Source of the DNA: a virus
Lineage: Duplodnaviria; Heunggongvirae; Uroviricota; Caudoviricetes
Virus record (IMG/VR): IMGVR_UViG_2534681674_000010
DNA length: 25,404 nt
Strand: one strand, 5' to 3'
Part shown: in pieces, positions 1,019 to 11,707 of the stretch
Layout: each line of letters opens with the position of its first letter
Position numbering within the stretch: the first letter of the stretch is position 1
Notes under the pieces: model-generated
The model's database searches: none
What the model was told of the DNA's origin: nothing
Seen by the model: only the letters and a program-made list of their open reading frames with translations
Program-made: the position numbers and the translations under genes

Positions 1019-1579
1019 CTAAATACGCACTTTCAGATAAGTCAGTCCGGGATGAAGCCAGTAAGCCGGCACTTTTTTAAAGGGTGGAGTATTAAAATTA
1101 CGAAGAAGAGCCTCCCGCACAATTGCATCCTTATCAGCACCACTGGCCAGCGCTTCAATCTCAGCGGCTACCTGCAGATACCCCATGCAACGACCAATGC
1201 GCTGCATCAGCCCCTGTTTTTTATTGTTCTTCAGGTAATCAATGGCAAATTCAATGAGCGTCTCACTGTGCTGGTGCGATGGCAGTGTTACTTTTCCATT
1301 TTCTGATATGGTGATTTTCCCGTCATCACCGGATACAACAAAGGATGGCCGGTTACACTCCCATTCCAGCTCACTGCAATTATCATTATGAATACTGAAA
1401 CACTCTGCGAGATTTCTGCTCATCACTTTCCGACAATAATCGTCAAACGCAGCAAACTGCTCATCGCGGCGTTTTTTTTCATCTTCAGAAGGCATCAGCG
1501 CCGACAGTTTTTTATTCAGTTCAGCAATTTCATTTTCCAGACGACTGAAGCGCTGATTCATTTCTTCATGGTTCATCAC
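1019..1579 (-). CDS. hypothetical 186-aa protein between holin and endolysin (coiled-coil N-terminus, Cys-containing, no TM segment)
   Basis: Intact ORF; ATG directly abuts holin stop (1580-1582); no recognisable family. Confidence 0.6.
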   Translation of the reverse strand: MMNHEEMNQRFSRLENEIAELNKKLSALMPSEDEKKRRDEQFAAFDDYCRKVMSRNLAECFSIHNDNCSELEWECNRPSFVVSGDDGKITISENGKVTLPSHQHSETLIEFAIDYLKNNKKQGLMQRIGRCMGYLQVAAEIEALASGADKDAIVREALLRNFNTPPFKKVPAYWLHPGLTYLKVRI

Positions 1580-1796
1580 CTACTCTCCCCGTGCCGCCTT
1601 ACGCCGGTCTTCTTTAATCTTGAAATACAGGTTCGTCAGGTACGTCAGCAGACCAAACAGCAGACTCCCCAGCACGCCTATTGCCGCCCACTGAGACGGG
1701 GAAACCCCTGTCCAGCAACTGCAGGAACCAGTAGCCCGTTCCCACCGCTGACGTGGTGTATGACACACCTGTTGTGATTTTTTCCATCTGGTACAT
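1580..1796 (-). pseudogene. S: class II pinholin (phage 21 S21-like) with apparent +1 frameshift in a G4 run (plus 1705-1708)
   Basis: ORF 1614..1796 N-terminus [29 protein letters not shown] then out of frame; ORF 1580..1825 C-terminus [41 protein letters not shown] matches recalled S21; removing one G restores a ~72-aa holin. Confidence 0.65.
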
Positions 1797-1872
1797 ACCC
1801 CGTCTCCCGCAATCCGGAAGCTCACAACATGAAAAAGGCCAGCAGCTGTTTACTGATGGCCCTGACTCCCCG

Positions 1873-2145
1873 TTACAGCATCATGACCGATTCGGGTTGA
1901 GGTTCAGTCGCATCGGCGACCGGTGATTCAGGCTGAACTTCACCGCTCTCTGCGGTGGTATCTCCCGCTTCAGTCGGTGGCTCTGCCTGTACACCAAGCA
2001 GTTCATCCAGAATGGCATCCACTTCTGCATCAAGACGCGCTTCCAGGTTATGGCGAAGTTTCTGTTTCAGTGCGCTCCGGACTTCTTCAGAGCGCAGGAC
2101 GTCCTTCACTGCCTCTGCAGTGACCAGGGATGTAATTTCTGACAT
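1873..2145 (-). CDS. hypothetical acidic protein (90 aa)
   Basis: ORF from internal ATG at 2145 ([23 protein letters not shown]...); weak RBS. Confidence 0.45.
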
Positions 2146-2185
2146 GGGATTTTCTCGTCGAAAGGTGTGATTAAGAAAGTTGCCG

Positions 2186-2365
2186 CTAAATGAGCGGCTC
2201 TTCGGGTTTGCTTCCGGCTGACTGACTGGCGCTGATTTTCTCAGCGGCCCTTTTGTCAATCTGTCTGCGCCAGAAGTCACGCATGGCCCTGTACCCACCC
2301 GAAAGGAGATACAGCACACAGACCACCGTACAGAAGTACAGCATTAACTGGTTCAGAAATGTCAT
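2186..2365 (-). CDS. hypothetical small membrane protein (59 aa)
   Basis: ATG at 2365 with GGAAAG 5 nt upstream; MTFLNQLMLYFCTVVCVLYLLSGGY hydrophobic segment then charged tail; below ORF-track cutoff. Confidence 0.35.
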   Translation of the reverse strand: MTFLNQLMLYFCTVVCVLYLLSGGYRAMRDFWRRQIDKRAAEKISASQSAGSKPEEPLI

Positions 2366-2462
2366 AATTTCTTTCCGTTATTGTTGACAATAAGAACTGT
2401 TTTCATTAAAAACCAGAGTACGAAAGTATCGTTCCTTTATTTTTTCTCCATAGGTATCACCA

Positions 2463-2498
2463 CCGCCAGCGTCCATTCCTGTCGCTGGCGGTTTTTTT
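2463..2498 (+). terminator. intrinsic terminator hairpin with T7 tract on plus strand, abutting the nanS-p stop
   Basis: CCGCCAGCG-N11-CGCTGGCGG followed by TTTTTTT on plus strand; on minus strand no U tract follows the stem. Confidence 0.4.
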
Positions 2499-2499
2499 A

Positions 2500-4446
2500 T
2501 CATGCCGCAGTGTCTGTGCTGTTCACTTCCACCGCAATGCTGTCTATCAGTACCGGGTAAGTCGCACCTCTGGTAATGTCTGTCACATGCAGTTTATCCG
2601 CCGCAAAGGCACTGACCGGTGACTGCGTCAGCGTGAACGGTGTGCCATCCTGACCATCAATAACCGGCGTCACCTGCAGGCTGTTATTCCCGGCAAAGCG
2701 GAAAGCCAGCGTATGCCATTCGTTATCAAATGCGCCAAAGGTTCCCAGTTTCAGGTTGTTTGTCGCCACTTTCGCATTGTGGTACATCACATTCAGGTCT
2801 TTTGCATCTGTCTGGATGTAGAACGCTGCCAGCAGGTTATTCCCCCCATCTCCGGTCAGGGCAACGCCCTGTGGCAGTGAAGATACCGGCCAGTAAAACG
2901 CCATAACATACTGGTTCGCAGCCAGCGCTCCCGAAACCTTAAAGCGGCAGCGAATCTGCCCCCCTTTCTGTAACAGAGCCGCACCGTTGCCCGCGGCGTA
3001 CTCCAGCACCCAGCTGCTTTTACCGGCTTCCTTGGTCAGCTTCACTGCCTTACCTCCGGTTCCCTCCGCATCGCTGACCACTTCTGCCCTGCCGCCACTG
3101 GCTGACCATCCCTGTACTTTCAGGCTTCCCTCTGACTCGCTGGCAAGGTAAGAGAGCAGTGTTGTGACGCCTGTGGCTTCTGCACCGGAAGGCGATGACG
3201 GGCGCACCTCTGATACTGTCGATGATGCCCCCGCGTTTAGCGCCACTCCTCCCGCATGGCGCAAAATCGCCGTTGCCAGACGGTCGGAAATAATCCCGCG
3301 GCGAGCCCATGAACTGAAATGGCTCGCCCTGTCCTGTGACGTCCAGGTGGCTGAGCTGTCACGCCATTTCGAACCGTAATATCCGATACCCGGAATGTCC
3401 GGGTCTTCTTCCGGTTTGTTCGTCGGCACATTCACCCCGTTCTCATCCGTCATGAACGGTACGAAATGGATATTCTTTTCCGTTTTGTTTTTGTAGCTGC
3501 CGTACACCGTCTGGTACGTGGATTCGTTCTTCTGCTTCCAGAAATACGTCGTATCTCCACATATCCAGGGAACACCGCCAGCAGAGCCACCGACGCACTG
3601 ACCTGCCATATCCGCCAGGTCTGCACGGAATTTATCAACCAGCGCACCAAACTGTGCTGCGTGATTTACCGGCGTACCGCCAAAATCAAATTCCCCCTGC
3701 ATCCACACCACGGCAAGCAGCACATTTTTCGGGTTCTTCTTCAGTGCTGCTTTTGTTCGACCGATAAGGTGCTTATACAGCGGCTTGTCCACACCCCAGC
3801 GGGTTGAATTCTCCGAGGCACCACTCGCGTCACTGTATGTGCCATCGGCTCCGGTGGTGAACGCTGAACCACCACGACAGCACGGAACCAGCAGAATGCC
3901 CGCATTCGCCGGTATAAACGGCAGCAGTTTTTTGGCGATATGCAGCCCTTGCCCCACGGTTCCGTACTGCCCCTTTGACAGGTCCGCTTTCGGATGGTTA
4001 AGGCGGCTCATGTCCTGCACATCATGCAGACAATGGTCCGCCGGAATGATGTCGTTATATTTGCATGCTGCACCGCCCGGTGTCACCGTACTGCGGCGCG
4101 CCAGCTGCTTAATACGCGGGTCCGGACGGTCATATGTCTCCGGCAGCGGAAGGCCTTCACCATATGCCATGCTGTTTGACTGCCCCGCCAGAACCACAAC
4201 AAAGTAATACTCCGGGTCTCTGGTGGCGCTGATTACTGCACCTTCTCCACCTGTCGGCTTCACCACAACAGGTGTGCTCACATCACCTTCTGCGACAATC
4301 GCCTGAATAAGTGCTGCGCCATCATCCGTATACGAAGAAAACGGCCCACCATATGGTTGCCATCCTTCACGAATTTTTTGCGCAAGTGCATCAGCAAGGT
4401 CTGACGGCGACGCCGCCCTGACAACATCATAATGTTTAAATGTCAT
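2500..4446 (-). CDS. nanS-p: NanS-p-like prophage sialate O-acetylesterase (648 aa)
   Basis: Intact ORF; N-terminus MTFKHYDVVRAASPSDLADALAQKIREGW and size match recalled EHEC prophage NanS-p/Z1466-type esterases; position between Q region and lysis genes as in Stx phages. Confidence 0.75.
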   Translation of the reverse strand: MTFKHYDVVRAASPSDLADALAQKIREGWQPYGGPFSSYTDDGAALIQAIVAEGDVSTPVVVKPTGGEGAVISATRDPEYYFVVVLAGQSNSMAYGEGLPLPETYDRPDPRIKQLARRSTVTPGGAACKYNDIIPADHCLHDVQDMSRLNHPKADLSKGQYGTVGQGLHIAKKLLPFIPANAGILLVPCCRGGSAFTTGADGTYSDASGASENSTRWGVDKPLYKHLIGRTKAALKKNPKNVLLAVVWMQGEFDFGGTPVNHAAQFGALVDKFRADLADMAGQCVGGSAGGVPWICGDTTYFWKQKNESTYQTVYGSYKNKTEKNIHFVPFMTDENGVNVPTNKPEEDPDIPGIGYYGSKWRDSSATWTSQDRASHFSSWARRGIISDRLATAILRHAGGVALNAGASSTVSEVRPSSPSGAEATGVTTLLSYLASESEGSLKVQGWSASGGRAEVVSDAEGTGGKAVKLTKEAGKSSWVLEYAAGNGAALLQKGGQIRCRFKVSGALAANQYVMAFYWPVSSLPQGVALTGDGGNNLLAAFYIQTDAKDLNVMYHNAKVATNNLKLGTFGAFDNEWHTLAFRFAGNNSLQVTPVIDGQDGTPFTLTQSPVSAFAADKLHVTDITRGATYPVLIDSIAVEVNSTDTAA

Positions 4447-4489
4447 TATTCCTCCCGGCCGGGATAGTGTATTAAATCAGATATGGAGT

Positions 4490-4534
4490 GGGCTGTAGTC
4501 CGGAAGCCTGAATGACACACGGGGACTACAGCCC
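4490..4534. repeat. 12-bp perfect inverted repeat GGGCTGTAGTCC-N21-GGACTACAGCCC in nanS-p upstream region
   Basis: Read directly; 44 nt upstream of nanS-p start. Confidence 0.5.
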
Positions 4535-4630
4535 AAGAAATGAAAAAAGGCCACGCAGTTGCGCAGCCTGATAAACCCTGGTTAAAATCCACACGATAAC
4601 AACACAACAATATCAGTATCTCATGCTATT

Positions 4631-4657
4631 GCCCGAACCCATTCGGGCATTTTTTTA
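4631..4657 (+). terminator. intrinsic terminator (plus orientation)
   Basis: GCCCGAA-ccc-a-TTCGGGC followed by TTTTTTT. Confidence 0.45.
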
Positions 4658-4662
4658 CCCAT

Positions 4663-4686
4663 AAAAAAGCCCCTCCGGAGAGGGGC
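4663..4686 (-). terminator. intrinsic terminator (minus orientation), back-to-back with the previous one
   Basis: GCCCCTC-cgga-GAGGGGC; on minus strand followed by TTTTTTAT. Confidence 0.5.
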
Positions 4687-4924
4687 ATGTTTGCATGCAC
4701 ATTCTTTTTCTTGCATGGTGCCGGGTGCCTCCCGGTGAATTCAGTACCAGCACCTGAATCCGCGATTACCCCATATACCTGGTTGCTGATTGCCCCTCCG
4801 CACAGGGGGATTCACCATGCCAGTTTCTTTTAACAAACTCCCCGCAAACCAGACAACAGTCAACCGCCTGAATTGTGAGACATTTAAAAAAAGGCCCGCA
4901 AAAGCGAGCCAGGGAAAATAAGTG

Positions 4925-5000
4925 TGGCGCGTTGTACTGGATTCGAACCAGCGACCTGGCGACTATGCGTCGCTCGCTCTCACCACTGAGCTAAAGGGCC
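4925..5000 (-). tRNA. tRNA-like gene, CAU anticodon (Ile2/Met-like), probably degenerate
   Basis: Minus strand GGCCCTTTAGCTCAGTGGTGAGAGC...GCTGGTTCGAATCCAGT...GCGCCA; D, anticodon and T arms fold, T-loop TTCGAAT, 5' half resembles recalled tRNA-Ile2; 3' acceptor strand ACAACGC cannot pair with 5' GGCCCTT and position 33 is G. Confidence 0.5.
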
Positions 5001-5040
5001 GGGCGCAGGATAATAACGGTACGTAACTAATCCTGCAATA

Positions 5041-6099
5041 TCATCCGTTCTGACTGACTAAATCCTGTACTTCCCTGACCGTCTGCTCAAAACGTTCAGT
5101 CTCCAGCTCAACGCCAGTTGCACGACGCCCCAGCGCCATCGCGGCTTTGACTGTCGAACCCGACCCCATGAAGAAATCTGCAACCAGGTCACCCGGACGA
5201 CTGCTCGCACTGATTATCTGCTGCAGCATTTCTGCCGGTTTTTCGCACGGATGTTTCCCGGGATAGTACTGCACCGGTTTATGCGTCCACACATCCGTGT
5301 ACGGCACCTGCGCCGTCACGCCAAAATACCGCCGCAGATGTTTATATTCACTCTGCAGTTCCGCATACTGCCGGTTCAGTGAAGTATACGTCTCCAGCAG
5401 CTGGTGGTGGGGCTTTTCCAGTTCACCGCGCTGATGCTTCTCTTCTGCCACCCGGGCAAACAGCGCCTGTAATTTCAGATAATCGCTTTCGTTCGGTAGC
5501 TGCCACTGACTGGCACTGAACCAGTGCGACACCATGTTTTTCTTTCCTGTGGCATCCACTATCTGTTTTGCCGTTATCCCCAGGGCAGCACGCGCATCAC
5601 GAAAGTAAGAAATCAGCGGAGCCATCACATGCTGTTTCAGTGCCCTGCCCTTCGCCTCATACCCGGCATCTTTCGGACGATACGGCCCCTGATAATGTTC
5701 CGCGAACAGAATGCGCTCTGTGGCGGGGAAATACGCCCTCAGGCTTTCCTTGTTGCACCCGTTCCAGCGTCCGGACGGCTTCGCCCAGATAATATGGTTC
5801 AGCACACTGAAGCGTTCACGCATCATGATTTCAATGTCAGATGCCAGGCGATGGCCACAGAACAGGTAAAGACTTCCGGCAGGTTTCAGCACCCGCCAGA
5901 ACTGCGCCAGACACTGGTCCAGCCATTTCAGGTAATCCTCATCACCCGTCCACTGGTTATCCCAGCCCTCAGGCTTCACTTTAAAGTACGGCGGGTCCGT
6001 GACTATCAGGTCAACAGAATTTTCGGGTAACGACCGGATAAATTCCAGGCAGTCGGCGTTGATTAACTCACAACTGGATATTTTTACAGTATTAAACAT
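5041..6099 (-). CDS. DNA N6-adenine (amino) methyltransferase, beta-class, orphan
   Basis: 352 aa; motif IV DPPY near N-terminus (VDLIVTDPPYF), AdoMet motif I FFMGSGST near C-terminus; no restriction enzyme partner adjacent. Confidence 0.85.
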   Translation of the reverse strand: MFNTVKISSCELINADCLEFIRSLPENSVDLIVTDPPYFKVKPEGWDNQWTGDEDYLKWLDQCLAQFWRVLKPAGSLYLFCGHRLASDIEIMMRERFSVLNHIIWAKPSGRWNGCNKESLRAYFPATERILFAEHYQGPYRPKDAGYEAKGRALKQHVMAPLISYFRDARAALGITAKQIVDATGKKNMVSHWFSASQWQLPNESDYLKLQALFARVAEEKHQRGELEKPHHQLLETYTSLNRQYAELQSEYKHLRRYFGVTAQVPYTDVWTHKPVQYYPGKHPCEKPAEMLQQIISASSRPGDLVADFFMGSGSTVKAAMALGRRATGVELETERFEQTVREVQDLVSQNG

Positions 6100-6236
6100 G
6101 GATCATTAAGCCTGTCTCTGATAGGCTCATACCGCTTTTGCGCAAAGCAGATGGGCCTGAGGTTTGCTTGTGACCCCAACGCATGAGCAGATGGCTGGTG
6201 AGTGCCCCTAACACCCACCAGCCGCCCATTTACCAC

Positions 6237-6265
6237 AAATAAAAAAGCCTTCAGGACTGAAGGCG
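6237..6265 (-). terminator. intrinsic terminator (minus orientation)
   Basis: GCCTTCAG-gac-TGAAGGC; on minus strand followed by TTTTTTATTT; overlaps last codons of the 65-aa ORF. Confidence 0.5.
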
Positions 6266-6448
6266 TCTGTAACAACCAAACTGATAGTCTGCCAGACCCG
6301 CCATAACAAGCTGGGTCAGTATTAGCTGGCAGCGTTCGCGTGAAAGGTACGTATTCTGTGCAATCTCCCCGACTGTCGCCGGTTCGGTGGCACTTAATTC
6401 ATTAAAAACTGCTCTGGCGGTTTCTGTCATATCCTGCTGTTTCAGCAT
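6251..6448 (-). CDS. hypothetical 65-aa protein, first ORF downstream of Q/tR'
   Basis: Start chosen at MLKQQDMTETARAVF (ATG 6448, AGGG upstream); possible helix-turn-helix. Confidence 0.4.
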   Translation of the reverse strand: MLKQQDMTETARAVFNELSATEPATVGEIAQNTYLSRERCQLILTQLVMAGLADYQFGCYRRLQS

Positions 6449-6560
6449 GTCTTTTTCCCTTTTTCGGTTAACGTGACACACCAATAACTCTTGTCGAAAA
6501 AGCCAGCAAGCTGAAAGACCGGTATTCACCGCCACCAGCGCGTTTACTGTACTGGCGTGA

Positions 6561-6583
6561 TTTCAGTCATAAAAAAACCCGCC
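6561..6583 (-). terminator. tR'-like intrinsic terminator downstream of Q
   Basis: Minus strand CCCGTCGCCAGGCGGG followed by TTTTTTT, about 90 nt downstream of Q stop. Confidence 0.5.
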
Positions 6584-6631
6584 TGGCGACGGGTGTAAAA
6601 AATCTTCTAACGTCAGGCATAAAACGCCCAT

Positions 6632-6659
6632 CGTTAGGGCAAATTTACCACAGATTCGG
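6632..6659 (-). promoter_or_regulatory. candidate late promoter pR'-like (TTGATT-16-TAAATT), presumed Q loading region
   Basis: Sigma70-like hexamers on minus strand just downstream of Q stop. Confidence 0.3.
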
Positions 6660-6674
6660 GAAAAATCAACAAAG

Positions 6675-7496
6675 CTATCTGGTCACCTTTTTCAGTTGTT
6701 GTTCTGCCCATGCTTCTTCAATATCAAACTGCACCACCAGCGTATCGTAAAAACGTTTAACTGTTTTTTTCCATGTATCAAGAGATATGGCATCGGTTAC
6801 ATTACATATGGCATTAAATGCCTCCGTTGAAGGTAATCTTTCATAGCCACGCCCACCACAACGCTGACAGTTTCTGAAAACCGGCACACCCTGTTTTTCC
6901 GACTCTTCACGATGAATGGCAACACCGCGCCCACGACAATCTTTACAGGCAGTGGATACCTCTCCCTTCCCTCCACACTCCGGACAGGCAACTTTTACCA
7001 CCTCCCTGACTTTTTTCCATTCCTCCCAGTAAGACGGATACACGCCTTTTGTGCACTTTGCCCACACTGGCGGCTTACCATCCGGATACTGGATCTTGTT
7101 TGTAAAAACCTCGCTTTCAATAAATTTTTTTCCGTGACAGCAGGGGCACTGTTTTTTGCTCGCCGCGCTACGGGCATAATCTTCAAACGCATACGAAGCC
7201 ATAATACGCATCACTGCCGGTTTTATTTCTGCCGGGAGTTTTCTTAACGCCGCCACGCGATCACACCGACTGAGTGCATATTCTGTCAGCAATTCTGTTG
7301 CCCGCTCTCTGTCATTCATACTAATGCCCATTTTCCCAAGGAACGCAGAAAACCCCATCTCAGCCCGATTCTGTGTCATGCCCTGCGCGGCCATCACATC
7401 AGTGATACTCAGCGCATCTTTTGACGTTGAGGCCGATGCATCGGTCAGGCCAGGGGATTTTGGGGAGTAGTATTTCGGTAAATCTTCCAGTTTCAT
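6675..7496 (-). CDS. late-gene antiterminator Q-like protein (QuuQ-type, Cys-rich zinc motifs)
   Basis: 273 aa with CPCC...CPECGGKG...CKDCRGRG...CQRCGGRG; position after rusA and before pR'/tR' and late genes. Confidence 0.6.
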   Translation of the reverse strand: MKLEDLPKYYSPKSPGLTDASASTSKDALSITDVMAAQGMTQNRAEMGFSAFLGKMGISMNDRERATELLTEYALSRCDRVAALRKLPAEIKPAVMRIMASYAFEDYARSAASKKQCPCCHGKKFIESEVFTNKIQYPDGKPPVWAKCTKGVYPSYWEEWKKVREVVKVACPECGGKGEVSTACKDCRGRGVAIHREESEKQGVPVFRNCQRCGGRGYERLPSTEAFNAICNVTDAISLDTWKKTVKRFYDTLVVQFDIEEAWAEQQLKKVTR

Positions 7497-7867
7497 TTTT
7501 TGACCTGCCCTTCAAGCATTATGGGGTAAATCTTCACCCCCAGACGTCCACCAGATACTGGCTTTCCACGTACAATATTGATTTCATCAAACTGCTCATC
7601 GTCCATTAACAACCCCGCGTGCGTCAGCGCATCCAGCGGTGCTTTCAGAATATTGTCCAGGTCACGGCGGCGCTTATCCGGTGGCTCTGCAATAATTTTT
7701 ATTGCCAGCCGTCCGGACAGGCTTAATTTCAGTCGCTGCTGGCGAACAATAAGCGCCACTGCCCGGCGATAACGCTTCCCGGCTTTTGATACAAAATATG
7801 TGCTGCCACGGCGTCGCCAGTAAGTGTTCACCGTCGGCGGGTAAGGTAAAACCAAATCTATGAGCAT
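7493..7867 (-). CDS. rusA: RusA Holliday junction resolvase
   Basis: 124 aa; motifs PPTVNTYWRRRG and DKRRRDLDNILKAPLDALTHAGLLMDDEQ match recalled E. coli RusA. Confidence 0.85.
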   Translation of the reverse strand: MLIDLVLPYPPTVNTYWRRRGSTYFVSKAGKRYRRAVALIVRQQRLKLSLSGRLAIKIIAEPPDKRRRDLDNILKAPLDALTHAGLLMDDEQFDEINIVRGKPVSGGRLGVKIYPIMLEGQVKK

Positions 7868-9218: not shown

Positions 9219-9253
9219 GGTGTTTCTCAGCGACGGTTCAAGTCAGCCTGATT

Positions 9254-9526
9254 TTATAGCTGCTTCTGAATATCATCAACAGGTAATCCTGCCAACTCTC
9301 TTACCTCAGAAAGAAGAGAAAGGCTTACAACAACCTCATTACTTCGCATAACAAAACCACATTGAAAAGAACCATCACTGTTTCTGTAAACAACAACCGG
9401 GCGCGTGCTCTCATAAAACCCCGGGATCAAACTGGCTGGGATTTTCACAACACCTCCTGACGTAAAGGAAATGAAATGCATTATCGCTTCTCTCGGACTA
9501 TAACCATGAAAAGAGACGCATTTCAC
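9254..9526 (-). CDS. hypothetical protein
   Basis: 90-codon ORF; true start may be internal (MHFISFTSGG). Confidence 0.4.
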   Translation of the reverse strand: MKCVSFHGYSPREAIMHFISFTSGGVVKIPASLIPGFYESTRPVVVYRNSDGSFQCGFVMRSNEVVVSLSLLSEVRELAGLPVDDIQKQL

Positions 9527-9704
9527 TCAGTAAATCTGAGGATTTTATGCGCAAGAACAATGACTTTTTCTGTCTGCCGTTTATACAATCTGAATTACGT
9601 CTATTTTTTGAACACCGATAAATCAGCAAGCATTCTCAAATAAAGATTGCCTCCATAGTCCACATGGTGTAACACTATGTGTTATATAAAATGCAGAGGC
9701 AGGT

Positions 9705-10076
9705 ATGCGAATTTTCAAAAACGCCTGGTTTGAACGTTTCGCCCGAAAACATCGGATTTCCGATAAATCGCTGCGCAAAATCGTGGAGCAGGCCGATAAG
9801 GGGATCATATCCGCAAATTTGGGTAGTGGTGTCATTAAACAAAGATTAGCCCGAAGTGGTGGCGGAAAATCAGGCGGTTACCGGACAATAATTTTTTACC
9901 GCGTTGCAGAAAAAGCCTTTTTCATCTACGCATACGCAAAGAATGAACGAGAGAATATCACTGCTATAGAGGAAAATGCTTTTCGAAAAGCCGCTCCCCA
10001 TGTCCTCAATCTTACTGATGAACAGCTGGCACAATTGATTCAACAAGGCCAGTTCACGGAGGTACCCAATGAGTAA
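9705..10076 (+). CDS. RelE/HigB-family type II toxin (HigB2/Gp49-like)
   Basis: 123 aa; GGYRTIIFYRVAEKAFFIYAYAKNEREN...AFRKA typical of RelE-fold toxins; 8-nt overlap with downstream HTH gene. Confidence 0.65.
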   Translation: MRIFKNAWFERFARKHRISDKSLRKIVEQADKGIISANLGSGVIKQRLARSGGGKSGGYRTIIFYRVAEKAFFIYAYAKNERENITAIEENAFRKAAPHVLNLTDEQLAQLIQQGQFTEVPNE

Positions 10077-10386
10077 AAATTACCGCAGTGATGCACTTGC
10101 ATCTGTACATGAAATGATGGAGTCACTCCATGATATCGGTGCAATCACAAAACAAACTATGCGCGAATTCGATGAAACTTGTCTTCAGCCTGCGCCGGTA
10201 ATGTCTCCGGAAAGGATCCGTGCACTGCGAGAACGAGAGCATCTGTCTCAACCTGTTTTTGCCAGATACCTCAACGTCAGTAAAAACCTGATATCAGACT
10301 GGGAACGAGGAGTGAAACGCCCGGGAGGTGCAGCTCTTCGGCTTCTTTCAGTTGTCGAGAAAAACGGGATCCAGGTAATATCCTGA
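10069..10386 (+). CDS. HTH (XRE-family) antitoxin, HigA2-like
   Basis: 105 aa, C-terminal HTH LSQPVFARYLNVSKNLISDWERGVKRPGGAALRLL; overlaps toxin. Confidence 0.7.
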   Translation: MSKNYRSDALASVHEMMESLHDIGAITKQTMREFDETCLQPAPVMSPERIRALREREHLSQPVFARYLNVSKNLISDWERGVKRPGGAALRLLSVVEKNGIQVIS

Positions 10387-10488
10387 TATTCTAATACAAC
10401 AAAACCCGCCGAAGCAGGTTAAGTGCGGGTGCGTTGAGGATGCCTGACACATCAGAGGTGGCGAGGGATTTCTCCCTCGCCAGGTCTC

Positions 10489-10644
10489 TTACTCCTCAGG
10501 TTCGTAAGCTGTGAAGACAGCGACCTCCGTCTGGCCGGTTCGGATTCGTACCTCGCAGAGGTCTTTCCTCGTTACCAGTGCCGTCACTATGACGGTTAAA
10601 CAGATGACAATCAGGGCGATTAACATCGCCTTTTGCTGCTTCAT
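10489..10644 (-). CDS. hok: Hok/Gef-family type I toxin
   Basis: MKQQKAMLIALIVICLTVIVTALVTRKDLCEVRIRTGQTEVAVFTAYEPEE matches recalled HokD/RelF; AAGGAG RBS; GC hairpin GGCGAGGGA-tttc-TCCCTCGCC in 3' UTR (10459-10480). Confidence 0.85.
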   Translation of the reverse strand: MKQQKAMLIALIVICLTVIVTALVTRKDLCEVRIRTGQTEVAVFTAYEPEE

Positions 10645-10878
10645 AGCCTGCTTCTCCTTGCCTTTCGGCACGTAAGAGGCTAACCTACATGTGCAAAGCA
10701 TGAAATTGGCCTCAGATTAATGTTAAGCGTCCTGCAAGACGCGTAATGTTAACTGGGGCTTTTCTCTGTCTGCCTTACGGCGGCATGCCCGAGGCAGACA
10801 GCCTCAAGCACCCGCAGCAATTCTACTTAACTCTTCTTTCCCCGCAAATCATTTTATCCCCGATGGTAATGTTCTCCC

Positions 10879-11464: not shown

Positions 11465-11624
11465 AACGACACCCTAGGGTGGTTTCTAAACTATCACCAC
11501 CGTCAGGTCTCAATCGTCGGGTGGTGAGACGTACAGGGTTGAGACTACCGGGAAACCAACCGGCGAGCTTTTCAGCTCCCCTATACGCCCCACCATAATT
11601 CAGATGTGCGCGTGCATACGACAA

Positions 11625-11707
11625 TAAAAAACACGCTCGCGGCGTGTGTCTGTCGCGGTTTCTATCCGGGGTCTCAATCCCGACGGTCAACTCGACCGTG
11701 AGGTGAA
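11625..11707 (-). ncRNA. candidate small RNA (~80 nt) with its own promoter and terminator
   Basis: Minus strand TTGACG-18nt-TATATT (plus 11712-11741), then CGGUCGAGUUGACCG hairpin, then terminator ACACGC-cgcga-GCGTGT + TTTTTTATT; region 11465-11811 has no convincing ORF. Confidence 0.3.

Follow-up and report, generated by a model that had tools for sequence, protein, structure and literature searches.

We analysed a window of 25,404 nucleotides, the whole of the IMG/VR virus record IMGVR_UViG_2534681674_000010 (Caudoviricetes), and in particular the interval between a nanS-p type esterase gene and a tRNA-like gene, where a Shiga toxin (Stx) phage would carry stxAB. The window holds the late region of a common Escherichia coli prophage, with the layout of an Stx phage and without the toxin genes. 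The interval contains two previously described small RNA (sRNA) genes, STnc100 and agvB, next to an unoccupied cargo junction.

Gene order of the late region

The original prediction, made from the sequence alone, proposed the order antiterminator Q, pR'/tR', DNA methyltransferase, tRNA-like gene, nanS-p and lysis genes, and Pfam matches and a terminator scan upheld it on the minus strand. Q (6675-7496, minus strand, 273 aa) matches the Pfam family Antiterm (PF03589, E 5.3e-52) and corresponds to the RefSeq 'antitermination protein' WP_000762902. Directly after its stop codon lies a pR'-like late promoter recognised by eye (6642-6669, minus strand), TTGATT-N16-TAAATT followed by TGCCCT-AACGAT; we take lambda pR' to share the -10 element TAAATT and to have the AACGAT pause element at the same spacing. 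A consensus scan for sigma-70 promoters called none in 4300-6800, the pR'-like site matching at 8 of 12 positions where the threshold was 9. Two tR'-like terminators follow on the minus strand (6641-6625 and 6594-6577), and terminator-like sites are enriched throughout 4300-6800 (10, compared with 3.1 +/- 1.8 in shuffled sequences).

The next gene encodes an N6/N4 DNA methyltransferase of 352 aa (5041-6099, minus strand; PF01555, E 6.7e-44), and its DNA is 96-98% identical to the 'DNA methylase' of Stx2a phages. Beyond the tRNA-like gene and the interval lies nanS-p (2500-4446, minus strand), a sialate O-acetylesterase gene of 648 codons with the Pfam domains SASA, DUF1737 and DUF6645 and 94.9% DNA identity to its homologue in phage Stx2a_1447. 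Genes for a DUF1378 protein, a P21-type holin and a lysozyme are found 3' of it by Pfam. Q, the terminators, holin and lysozyme thus share one strand, as in a lambdoid late region governed by Q antitermination, with the promoter identified by eye only.

An sRNA module in the presumed toxin slot

The slot 4447-4924 had been thought to hold only convergent terminators and a 12-bp inverted repeat. The terminators (4630-4649, plus strand, and 4686-4669, minus strand) and a perfect repeat do exist, but the repeat is 13 nt long, two further minus-strand terminators are present (4910-4893 and 4569-4548), and Rfam finds two sRNA genes, of which the convergent terminators are the 3' ends. The first, on the minus strand at 4849-4657 with its terminator at 4686-4669, belongs to the STnc100 family (RF02076, 144.5 bits against a gathering score of 47, full model 1-206). 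The second, on the plus strand at 4594-4655 with its terminator at 4630-4649 followed by a T-run, is the anti-sRNA AgvB, a GcvB sponge (RF02702, 96.5 bits against a gathering score of 56, model positions 1-62 of 62). Its sequence, CGATAACAACACAACAATATC..., is identical at 62 of 62 positions to both AgvB1 (prophage Sp10) and AgvB2 (Sp17) of strain Sakai. It has the CACAACA motif of GcvB targets in its 5' region and the conserved 3' region of ~42 nt with a Rho-independent terminator, and it lies convergent with STnc100 between the moron site and nanS-p. A promoter-like sequence seen by eye, TTGCGC-N18-TAAAAT (4559-4588, plus strand), ends 6 nt before the AgvB 5' end and would drive its transcription; it is conserved in the Sp5, Sp9, Sp10 and Sp17 alleles. 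The second late-strand terminator (4548-4569, minus strand), which overlaps this promoter region, is conserved in all six aligned alleles.

Between that terminator and the ribosome-binding site of nanS-p, the 5' leader of the gene contains a conserved hairpin (4489-4535, minus strand), found by repeat search and RNAalifold and formed by the 13-nt perfect inverted repeat (4489-4501/4523-4535). RNAalifold on five alleles gave 13 pairs, three with compensatory double changes, and the G-U wobbles pair on the late-gene strand only.

STnc100 occupies the same position in 11 of 11 comparison loci, which take in toxin-less, Stx1 and Stx2 prophages and include Sp5 (stx2) and Sp15 (stx1), with scores of 138-208 bits. 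In all of them it lies immediately 3' of the cargo or the tRNAs, and upstream of nanS-p wherever nanS-p is present. An alignment of toxin-less, Stx1 and Stx2 prophages spans the whole stretch between the cargo boundary and the nanS-p start codon. By this alignment, 4447-4886 is a conserved sRNA module, present in Stx phages too, where it follows stxB.

Such an organisation has been described before. The region 3' of pR' was reported to be a moron insertion site with convergent sRNA genes, exemplified by Sp5 (stx2), and the same organisation was given for Sp3, Sp4, Sp9, Sp10, Sp11, Sp15 and Sp17 (Tree et al., 2014, PMC4104026). A 2025 paper places STnc100 75 nt 3' of stx2, and a 2026 preprint links STnc100/PasD to an esterase gene. 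The published EcOnc06 of Sp17 (~177 nt) coincides with the STnc100 match if an offset of ~+137 nt is assumed at 3.48 Mb; the coordinates of Tree et al. refer to an older Sakai version, from which AgvB1 and AsxR are offset by ~+137 nt. AgvB1 and AgvB2 bind GcvB, a core sRNA, by pairing at its R1 seed, and they lift the repression of dppA; AgvB also confers a competitive growth advantage on enterohaemorrhagic E. coli (EHEC) in bovine rectal mucus (Tree et al., 2014, PMC4104026). From its identity to these copies, AgvB of the window would likewise be expected to bind GcvB in an Hfq-dependent manner and to derepress dppA.

The module also varies among Stx phages. The interval between STnc100 and nanS-p is ~575 nt in Stx2a phages of the EH1910/1447 type (~3540-4113 of the 1447 locus), compared with ~210 nt here, and in Stx2_EH1910 it holds an iraM-like gene on the opposite strand (locus 3741-4064). 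No match to AgvB or AsxR reaching the gathering score was found in this interval of EH1910/1447-type phages. These observations suggest a second variable cargo position inside the module of such phages. Many Stx1a phages (BP-4795, YYZ-2008) carry a module 84.6% identical to 4447-4742 of the window, with the AgvB position covered, so an AgvB-like anti-sRNA may be linked to stx1 in that lineage.

An empty cargo junction

The Rho-independent terminator at 4893-4910 (minus strand) is the one that follows argO in Stx phages, and the segment 4887-4956 shares 97% identity with the argO and terminator DNA that immediately precedes stx2A in Stx2a_1447. On the tRNA side, homology to Stx2 phages runs through argO and this terminator and ends in the T-run at 4887; on the other side it begins at 4882. 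The intervening DNA of Stx2a_1447 comprises 1,335 bp (4363-5697 of the fetched locus), from 54 bp before the stx2A ATG to 42 bp past the stx2B stop. The site occupied by stx2AB in Stx2 phages thus corresponds to an unoccupied cargo (moron) junction at 4883-4886. By these homology limits the cargo point measures ~0-4 bp, with the terminator of the last tRNA on one side and the sRNA module beginning on the other. The earlier proposal that the whole 478-bp interval 4447-4924 is the place of stxAB was not borne out.

No stx remnant was found in the window by short-word blastn with the stx2 region of Sp5 and the stx1 region of Sp15, or by tblastn with four Stx subunits; these searches returned chance-level matches only, apart from the shared argO terminator. 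The stxA and stxB genes that an Stx-converting phage carries 3' of Q/pR' are therefore missing, the cassette being absent between 4882 and 4887.

The same empty junction, with the argO terminator joined directly to STnc100, occurs in phage Nil3 (98.7% identity over 4800-4956), where it differs from that of the window by one T in the run, and also in PhiR49_2 and vB_EcoS-611R1 (94.9%). A diverged empty allele (72% identity, 29 extra bp) is present in Sp9, Lahn2, TL-2011a, PPwrbA and three phi phages. Other prophages have different cargo at this point, a TciA/TerB-like gene in Sp10 and PPyecE_EH1910 and a membrane protein gene in Sp17. A literature search on phages Nil3 and Lahn2 returned unrelated papers and no relevant one.

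Relation to Stx phages and other prophages

Over 1-21474 the window is 99.8% identical to a prophage of the O157:H7 strain F6294. In F6294 and similar genomes the integrase abuts a truncated ompW, and the window itself diverges from them beyond the integrase, from 21351. Because of this integrase-ompW junction in near-identical genomes, and because Sakai Sp9 also adjoins ompW, the prophage probably belongs to the ompW-integrated lambda-like type, PPompW, the family of Sp9. Prophages of this type swap segments by recombination, and Stx2a prophages integrate inside them and recombine with other prophages (Nakamura et al., 2021). The arrangement nanS-p 5' end/AgvB/STnc100/chimeric tRNA-like gene/methylase 3' end, counted as present if at least 80% of the query was covered, was found in 476 of 5,426 complete E. 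coli genomes, with O157:H7, O111 and O103 strains among them.

Megablast of 2400-7600 matched 378 phage records, mostly of Stx-converting phages. The segment 4937-7600, with Q, the methylase gene and the 5' part of ileZ, is 98.4% identical to the Stx2a phage Stx2_EH1910, and 1572-4446 is 95.1% identical to Stx2a_1447. Both phages have the order Q, small open reading frame (ORF), DNA methylase, ileZ, argN, argO, stx2A, stx2B, nanS-p, holin and endolysin. In Stx2_EH1910 and Stx2a_1447 (WGPS2) the flanks running from Q through the methyltransferase gene to the tRNAs and from nanS-p to the lysis genes are 93-98% identical to the window. As in the window, the cargo point has the argO terminator on its upstream side and STnc100 on its downstream side, which is true of Sp5/933W as well; unlike the window, these Stx2a phages have the 1,335-bp stx2AB cassette, an intact ileZ-argN-argO array and an STnc100 allele of only ~68% identity, and AgvB is replaced by AsxR in Sp5 and by the iraM-like gene in EH1910. 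Alignment against Stx phages was thus collinear and both stx flanks are present and adjacent, with no similarity to stx between them, which supports the view of the original prediction that the locus is a toxin-less counterpart of the Stx-phage late region. Toxin-less loci of this layout are already known; they are textbook features of EHEC prophages and have been published explicitly, and the finding is in this respect real but ordinary.

Sakai Sp9 lies next to ompW, the probable site of the prophage in the window as well, and resembles the window in the order Q, small ORF, methylase, ileZ/argO, STnc100, anti-sRNA, nanS-p, S and R, and in a collinear junction with no cargo gene. It differs in a module of 72% identity with EcOnc03 in place of AgvB, in 29 extra bp at the junction, in keeping ileZ and argO as distinct genes on either side of a decayed argN, in a nanS-p of ~69% identity and in a different Q. 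Sp10 and Sp17, which carry AgvB1 and AgvB2, share AgvB at 62 of 62 positions and the module at 92.9% and 97.3% identity, likewise convergent with STnc100 and upstream of nanS-p; in contrast to the window, their moron site is filled by cargo, which takes the place of the first ~11 nt of the STnc100 region, their Q genes are of other types, and they lack a methyltransferase. Identity of the window with either of them was rejected, given their cargo genes and other Q types. Nil3 (AM051322, from bovine O157:H7) and PhiR49_2 (PV340570), which share the empty junction at 98.7% and 94.9%, differ in having an intact three-tRNA array and a different Q, and PhiR49_2 lacks nanS-p.

Origin of the toxin-less state

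The original prediction left two origins for the toxin-less state, an ancestral empty site or loss of cargo. Both a never-occupied site and replacement of a patch by double crossover fit the data, which do not give the direction; of the proposed losses, only a recent clean deletion is disfavoured. The late region is a mosaic, with flanks nearest to Stx2a phages (93-98%), 4391-4838 nearest to Sp17/PPyecE_EH1910 (97.3%) and the junction nearest to Nil3 (98.7%). The module shares only 68-73% identity with its counterpart in Stx2 phages, and 84.6% (at 67% coverage) with the one in Stx1a phages.

A possible though rather unlikely history is that an ancestor of Stx2a type acquired the AgvB-type module from another lambdoid prophage in one double crossover, with breakpoints in argO or its terminator and in the 5' part of nanS-p, so that stx2AB, the STnc100 allele and the iraM-like gene were replaced together. 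The 98.4% identity of 4937-7600 to Stx2_EH1910 and the 95.1% identity of 1572-4446 to Stx2a_1447 speak for it, as does the module, which at 4391-4838 is 97.3% identical to Sp17/PPyecE_EH1910 yet only 68% to those Stx2a phages. The late region also resembles Stx2a phages far more than it does Sp9 (69-93%), the PPompW of Sakai itself, and Stx2a prophages have been reported to insert into PPompW and to undergo recombination with other prophages. However, the same pattern would arise if an Stx2a phage had taken its flanks from a toxin-less phage, and the 48 bp at 4839-4886 together with the junction match toxin-less Nil3 (98.7%) and not Sp17, which calls for at least two donors. The right-hand breakpoint can be placed only roughly by sliding identity, as it falls at a hypervariable stretch of nanS-p (~4215-4396) that no comparison allele matches well.

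The empty junction of the window, Nil3 and PhiR49_2 might instead be the state that preceded insertion of the stx moron, with the STnc100 module serving as a 'landing pad' and as a 3' untranslated region for cargo, an idea that we regard as improbable. The stx2 and stx1 cassettes extend ~42 and ~40 bp past their stop codons, and both stop within ~10 nt of a common position on the upstream side of STnc100. Were the idea correct, the function of STnc100 would be tied to expression of the cargo, and the first capture of stx would be recorded in the cassette boundaries.

Recent clean excision of stxAB from an Stx phage that was identical in all other respects, with the flanks staying behind, is very unlikely as judged from the sequences compared, because the empty junction recurs in unrelated phages with intact tRNAs and the module has diverged. 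Both stx flanks are indeed present and abutting, and a deletion did occur in the tRNA array ~40 bp away. Yet the flank downstream of the junction is 68-73% identical to Stx2 phages and 84.6% (67% coverage) to Stx1a phages, no stx remnant is left, and an identical junction occurs in phages that differ in Q and have kept their tRNAs intact. A parent for the deletion, that is, an Stx phage with a near-identical AgvB-type module, was sought among 50,697 records; none exceeded 95% identity in the module, and the best Stx matches were Stx1a phages at 84.6%.

A chimeric tRNA-like gene and an antisense ORF

Aligned to the ileZ-argN-argO array of Stx2a_1447, the tRNA-like gene (4925-5000, minus strand, 76 nt) is a chimeric pseudo-tRNA. 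Its positions 1-49 derive from ileZ and its positions 57-76 from argO; the crossover falls in CTGGTTC (4951-4945), a T-arm sequence common to both, and argN is deleted. Only two of seven acceptor-stem pairs form, because the two strands stem from different tRNAs, and the anticodon loop has changed from U33 to G (4968) and from A38 to G (4963), the latter change being private to the window. The gene thus has neither the seven-pair acceptor stem nor the U33 of a functional tRNA, and is a dead ileZ/argO chimera, left by a deletion across the phage tRNA array that removed argN.

That it is a functional tRNA-Met or tRNA-Ile2 is highly improbable, even though RefSeq/PGAP labels it tRNA-Met (4925-4995, minus strand) in near-identical genomes, its Rfam tRNA match of 33.9 bits exceeds the gathering score of 29, and the D-arm, anticodon CAT and T-arm are kept. 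The Rfam match covers model positions 7-64 only and so omits the acceptor stem, the intact phage tRNAs score 50-72 bits, and ARAGORN, run over the whole window, found no tRNA and rejects the chimera; the two-pair stem of mixed origin and the loss of the conserved U33 point the same way.

In toxin-less Sp9 (locus 5656-5735) and Sp10 (locus 4282-4381) the spacer between ileZ and argO is a decayed argN, with both ends conserved and the anticodon arm deleted or scrambled. These remnants appear to represent an earlier stage of the same decay, and together with the chimera they suggest that toxin-less prophages lose their tRNA array step by step.

It is scarcely credible that the slot encodes a small protein in place of the RNAs, since the 48-aa ORF at 4687-4833 (plus strand), although listed in RefSeq as a partial coding sequence and annotated in Sakai as ECs_3499 from the homologous ATG, lies antisense to the 144-bit STnc100 match, is matched by no ORF of 25 aa or longer in the alleles of Sp9 and Sp10, and shares little or no sequence with the Sp17 and Sp5 ORFs, which start elsewhere; as a non-conserved ORF it was rejected as a coding gene. 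Both PGAP calls, the hypothetical protein (4687-4833, plus strand) and the tRNA-Met, look like annotation artefacts.

Further features of the prophage

Relative to the F6294 prophage, the window has single-base indels at 705, 1705, 2408 and 21029. They break the endolysin gene into ORFs 686-982 and 448-744 and the holin gene into ORFs 1614-1796 and 1580-1825, and they shorten the integrase (20053-21108). Of the four, at least two and arguably three lie within short homopolymer runs, and exactly 1,000 bp separate the first two. The indels may reflect either errors of sequencing or genuine pseudogenisation.

A gene pair for a RelE/ParE-family toxin and a helix-turn-helix antitoxin, so annotated in F6294, lies at 9705-10386 (plus strand), within a segment (9229-10398) that the PPompW of EC4115, although similar elsewhere, lacks. 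The early region has Rfam matches to the sok antitoxin RNA with a hok-like ORF (117 bits; 10489-10813, minus strand), to DicF near dicB (76.7 bits; 16628-16679, plus strand), and to C4 antisense RNA and isrK (70.5 and 52.4 bits; 11517-11699, minus strand) beside an ORF6N antirepressor-like gene.

Proposed working of the locus and its significance

We consider it highly probable that the interval is the Q-controlled leader of the late operon of an ompW-integrated lambda-like prophage, with the architecture of an Stx phage, no stx cassette, and an sRNA module. In the lysogen, AgvB would have a promoter of its own and need no Q for its transcription. Once the prophage is induced, RNA polymerase that starts at pR' and is modified by Q would pass tR', the tRNA terminator, the STnc100 terminator and the terminator at 4569-4548, and this read-through would allow expression of nanS-p and the lysis genes. 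The toxin-less state would then reflect either a moron site that was never occupied or a patch of ~0.5 kb replaced by homologous recombination between lambdoid prophages.

Several points weigh against this interpretation. The AgvB and pR' promoters were recognised by eye only, neither being called by the consensus scan. For homologues of STnc100 only Hfq binding and Northern bands have been reported. The 1-bp frameshifts in holin, endolysin and integrase may mean that read-through in this copy does not lead to productive lysis. Moreover, the flanks are nearest to Stx2a phages (98% from Q through the methyltransferase gene to ileZ, 95% in nanS-p), and the ancestor may well have carried stx.

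The finding is of little importance beyond annotation, and only the ileZ/argO chimera and the base-level cassette boundaries are possibly unreported. Two RefSeq labels need correction, the dead chimera given as tRNA-Met and the spurious partial ORF antisense to STnc100. Defining the boundaries of the stx2 cassette at base level against a natural empty site is a small aid to work on stx acquisition. Strains with this PPompW allele carry one extra copy of agvB, and what looks like an empty intergenic toxin slot would be a functional sRNA module, whose AgvB may contribute to the advantage in mucus described for this anti-sRNA (Tree et al., 2014, PMC4104026).

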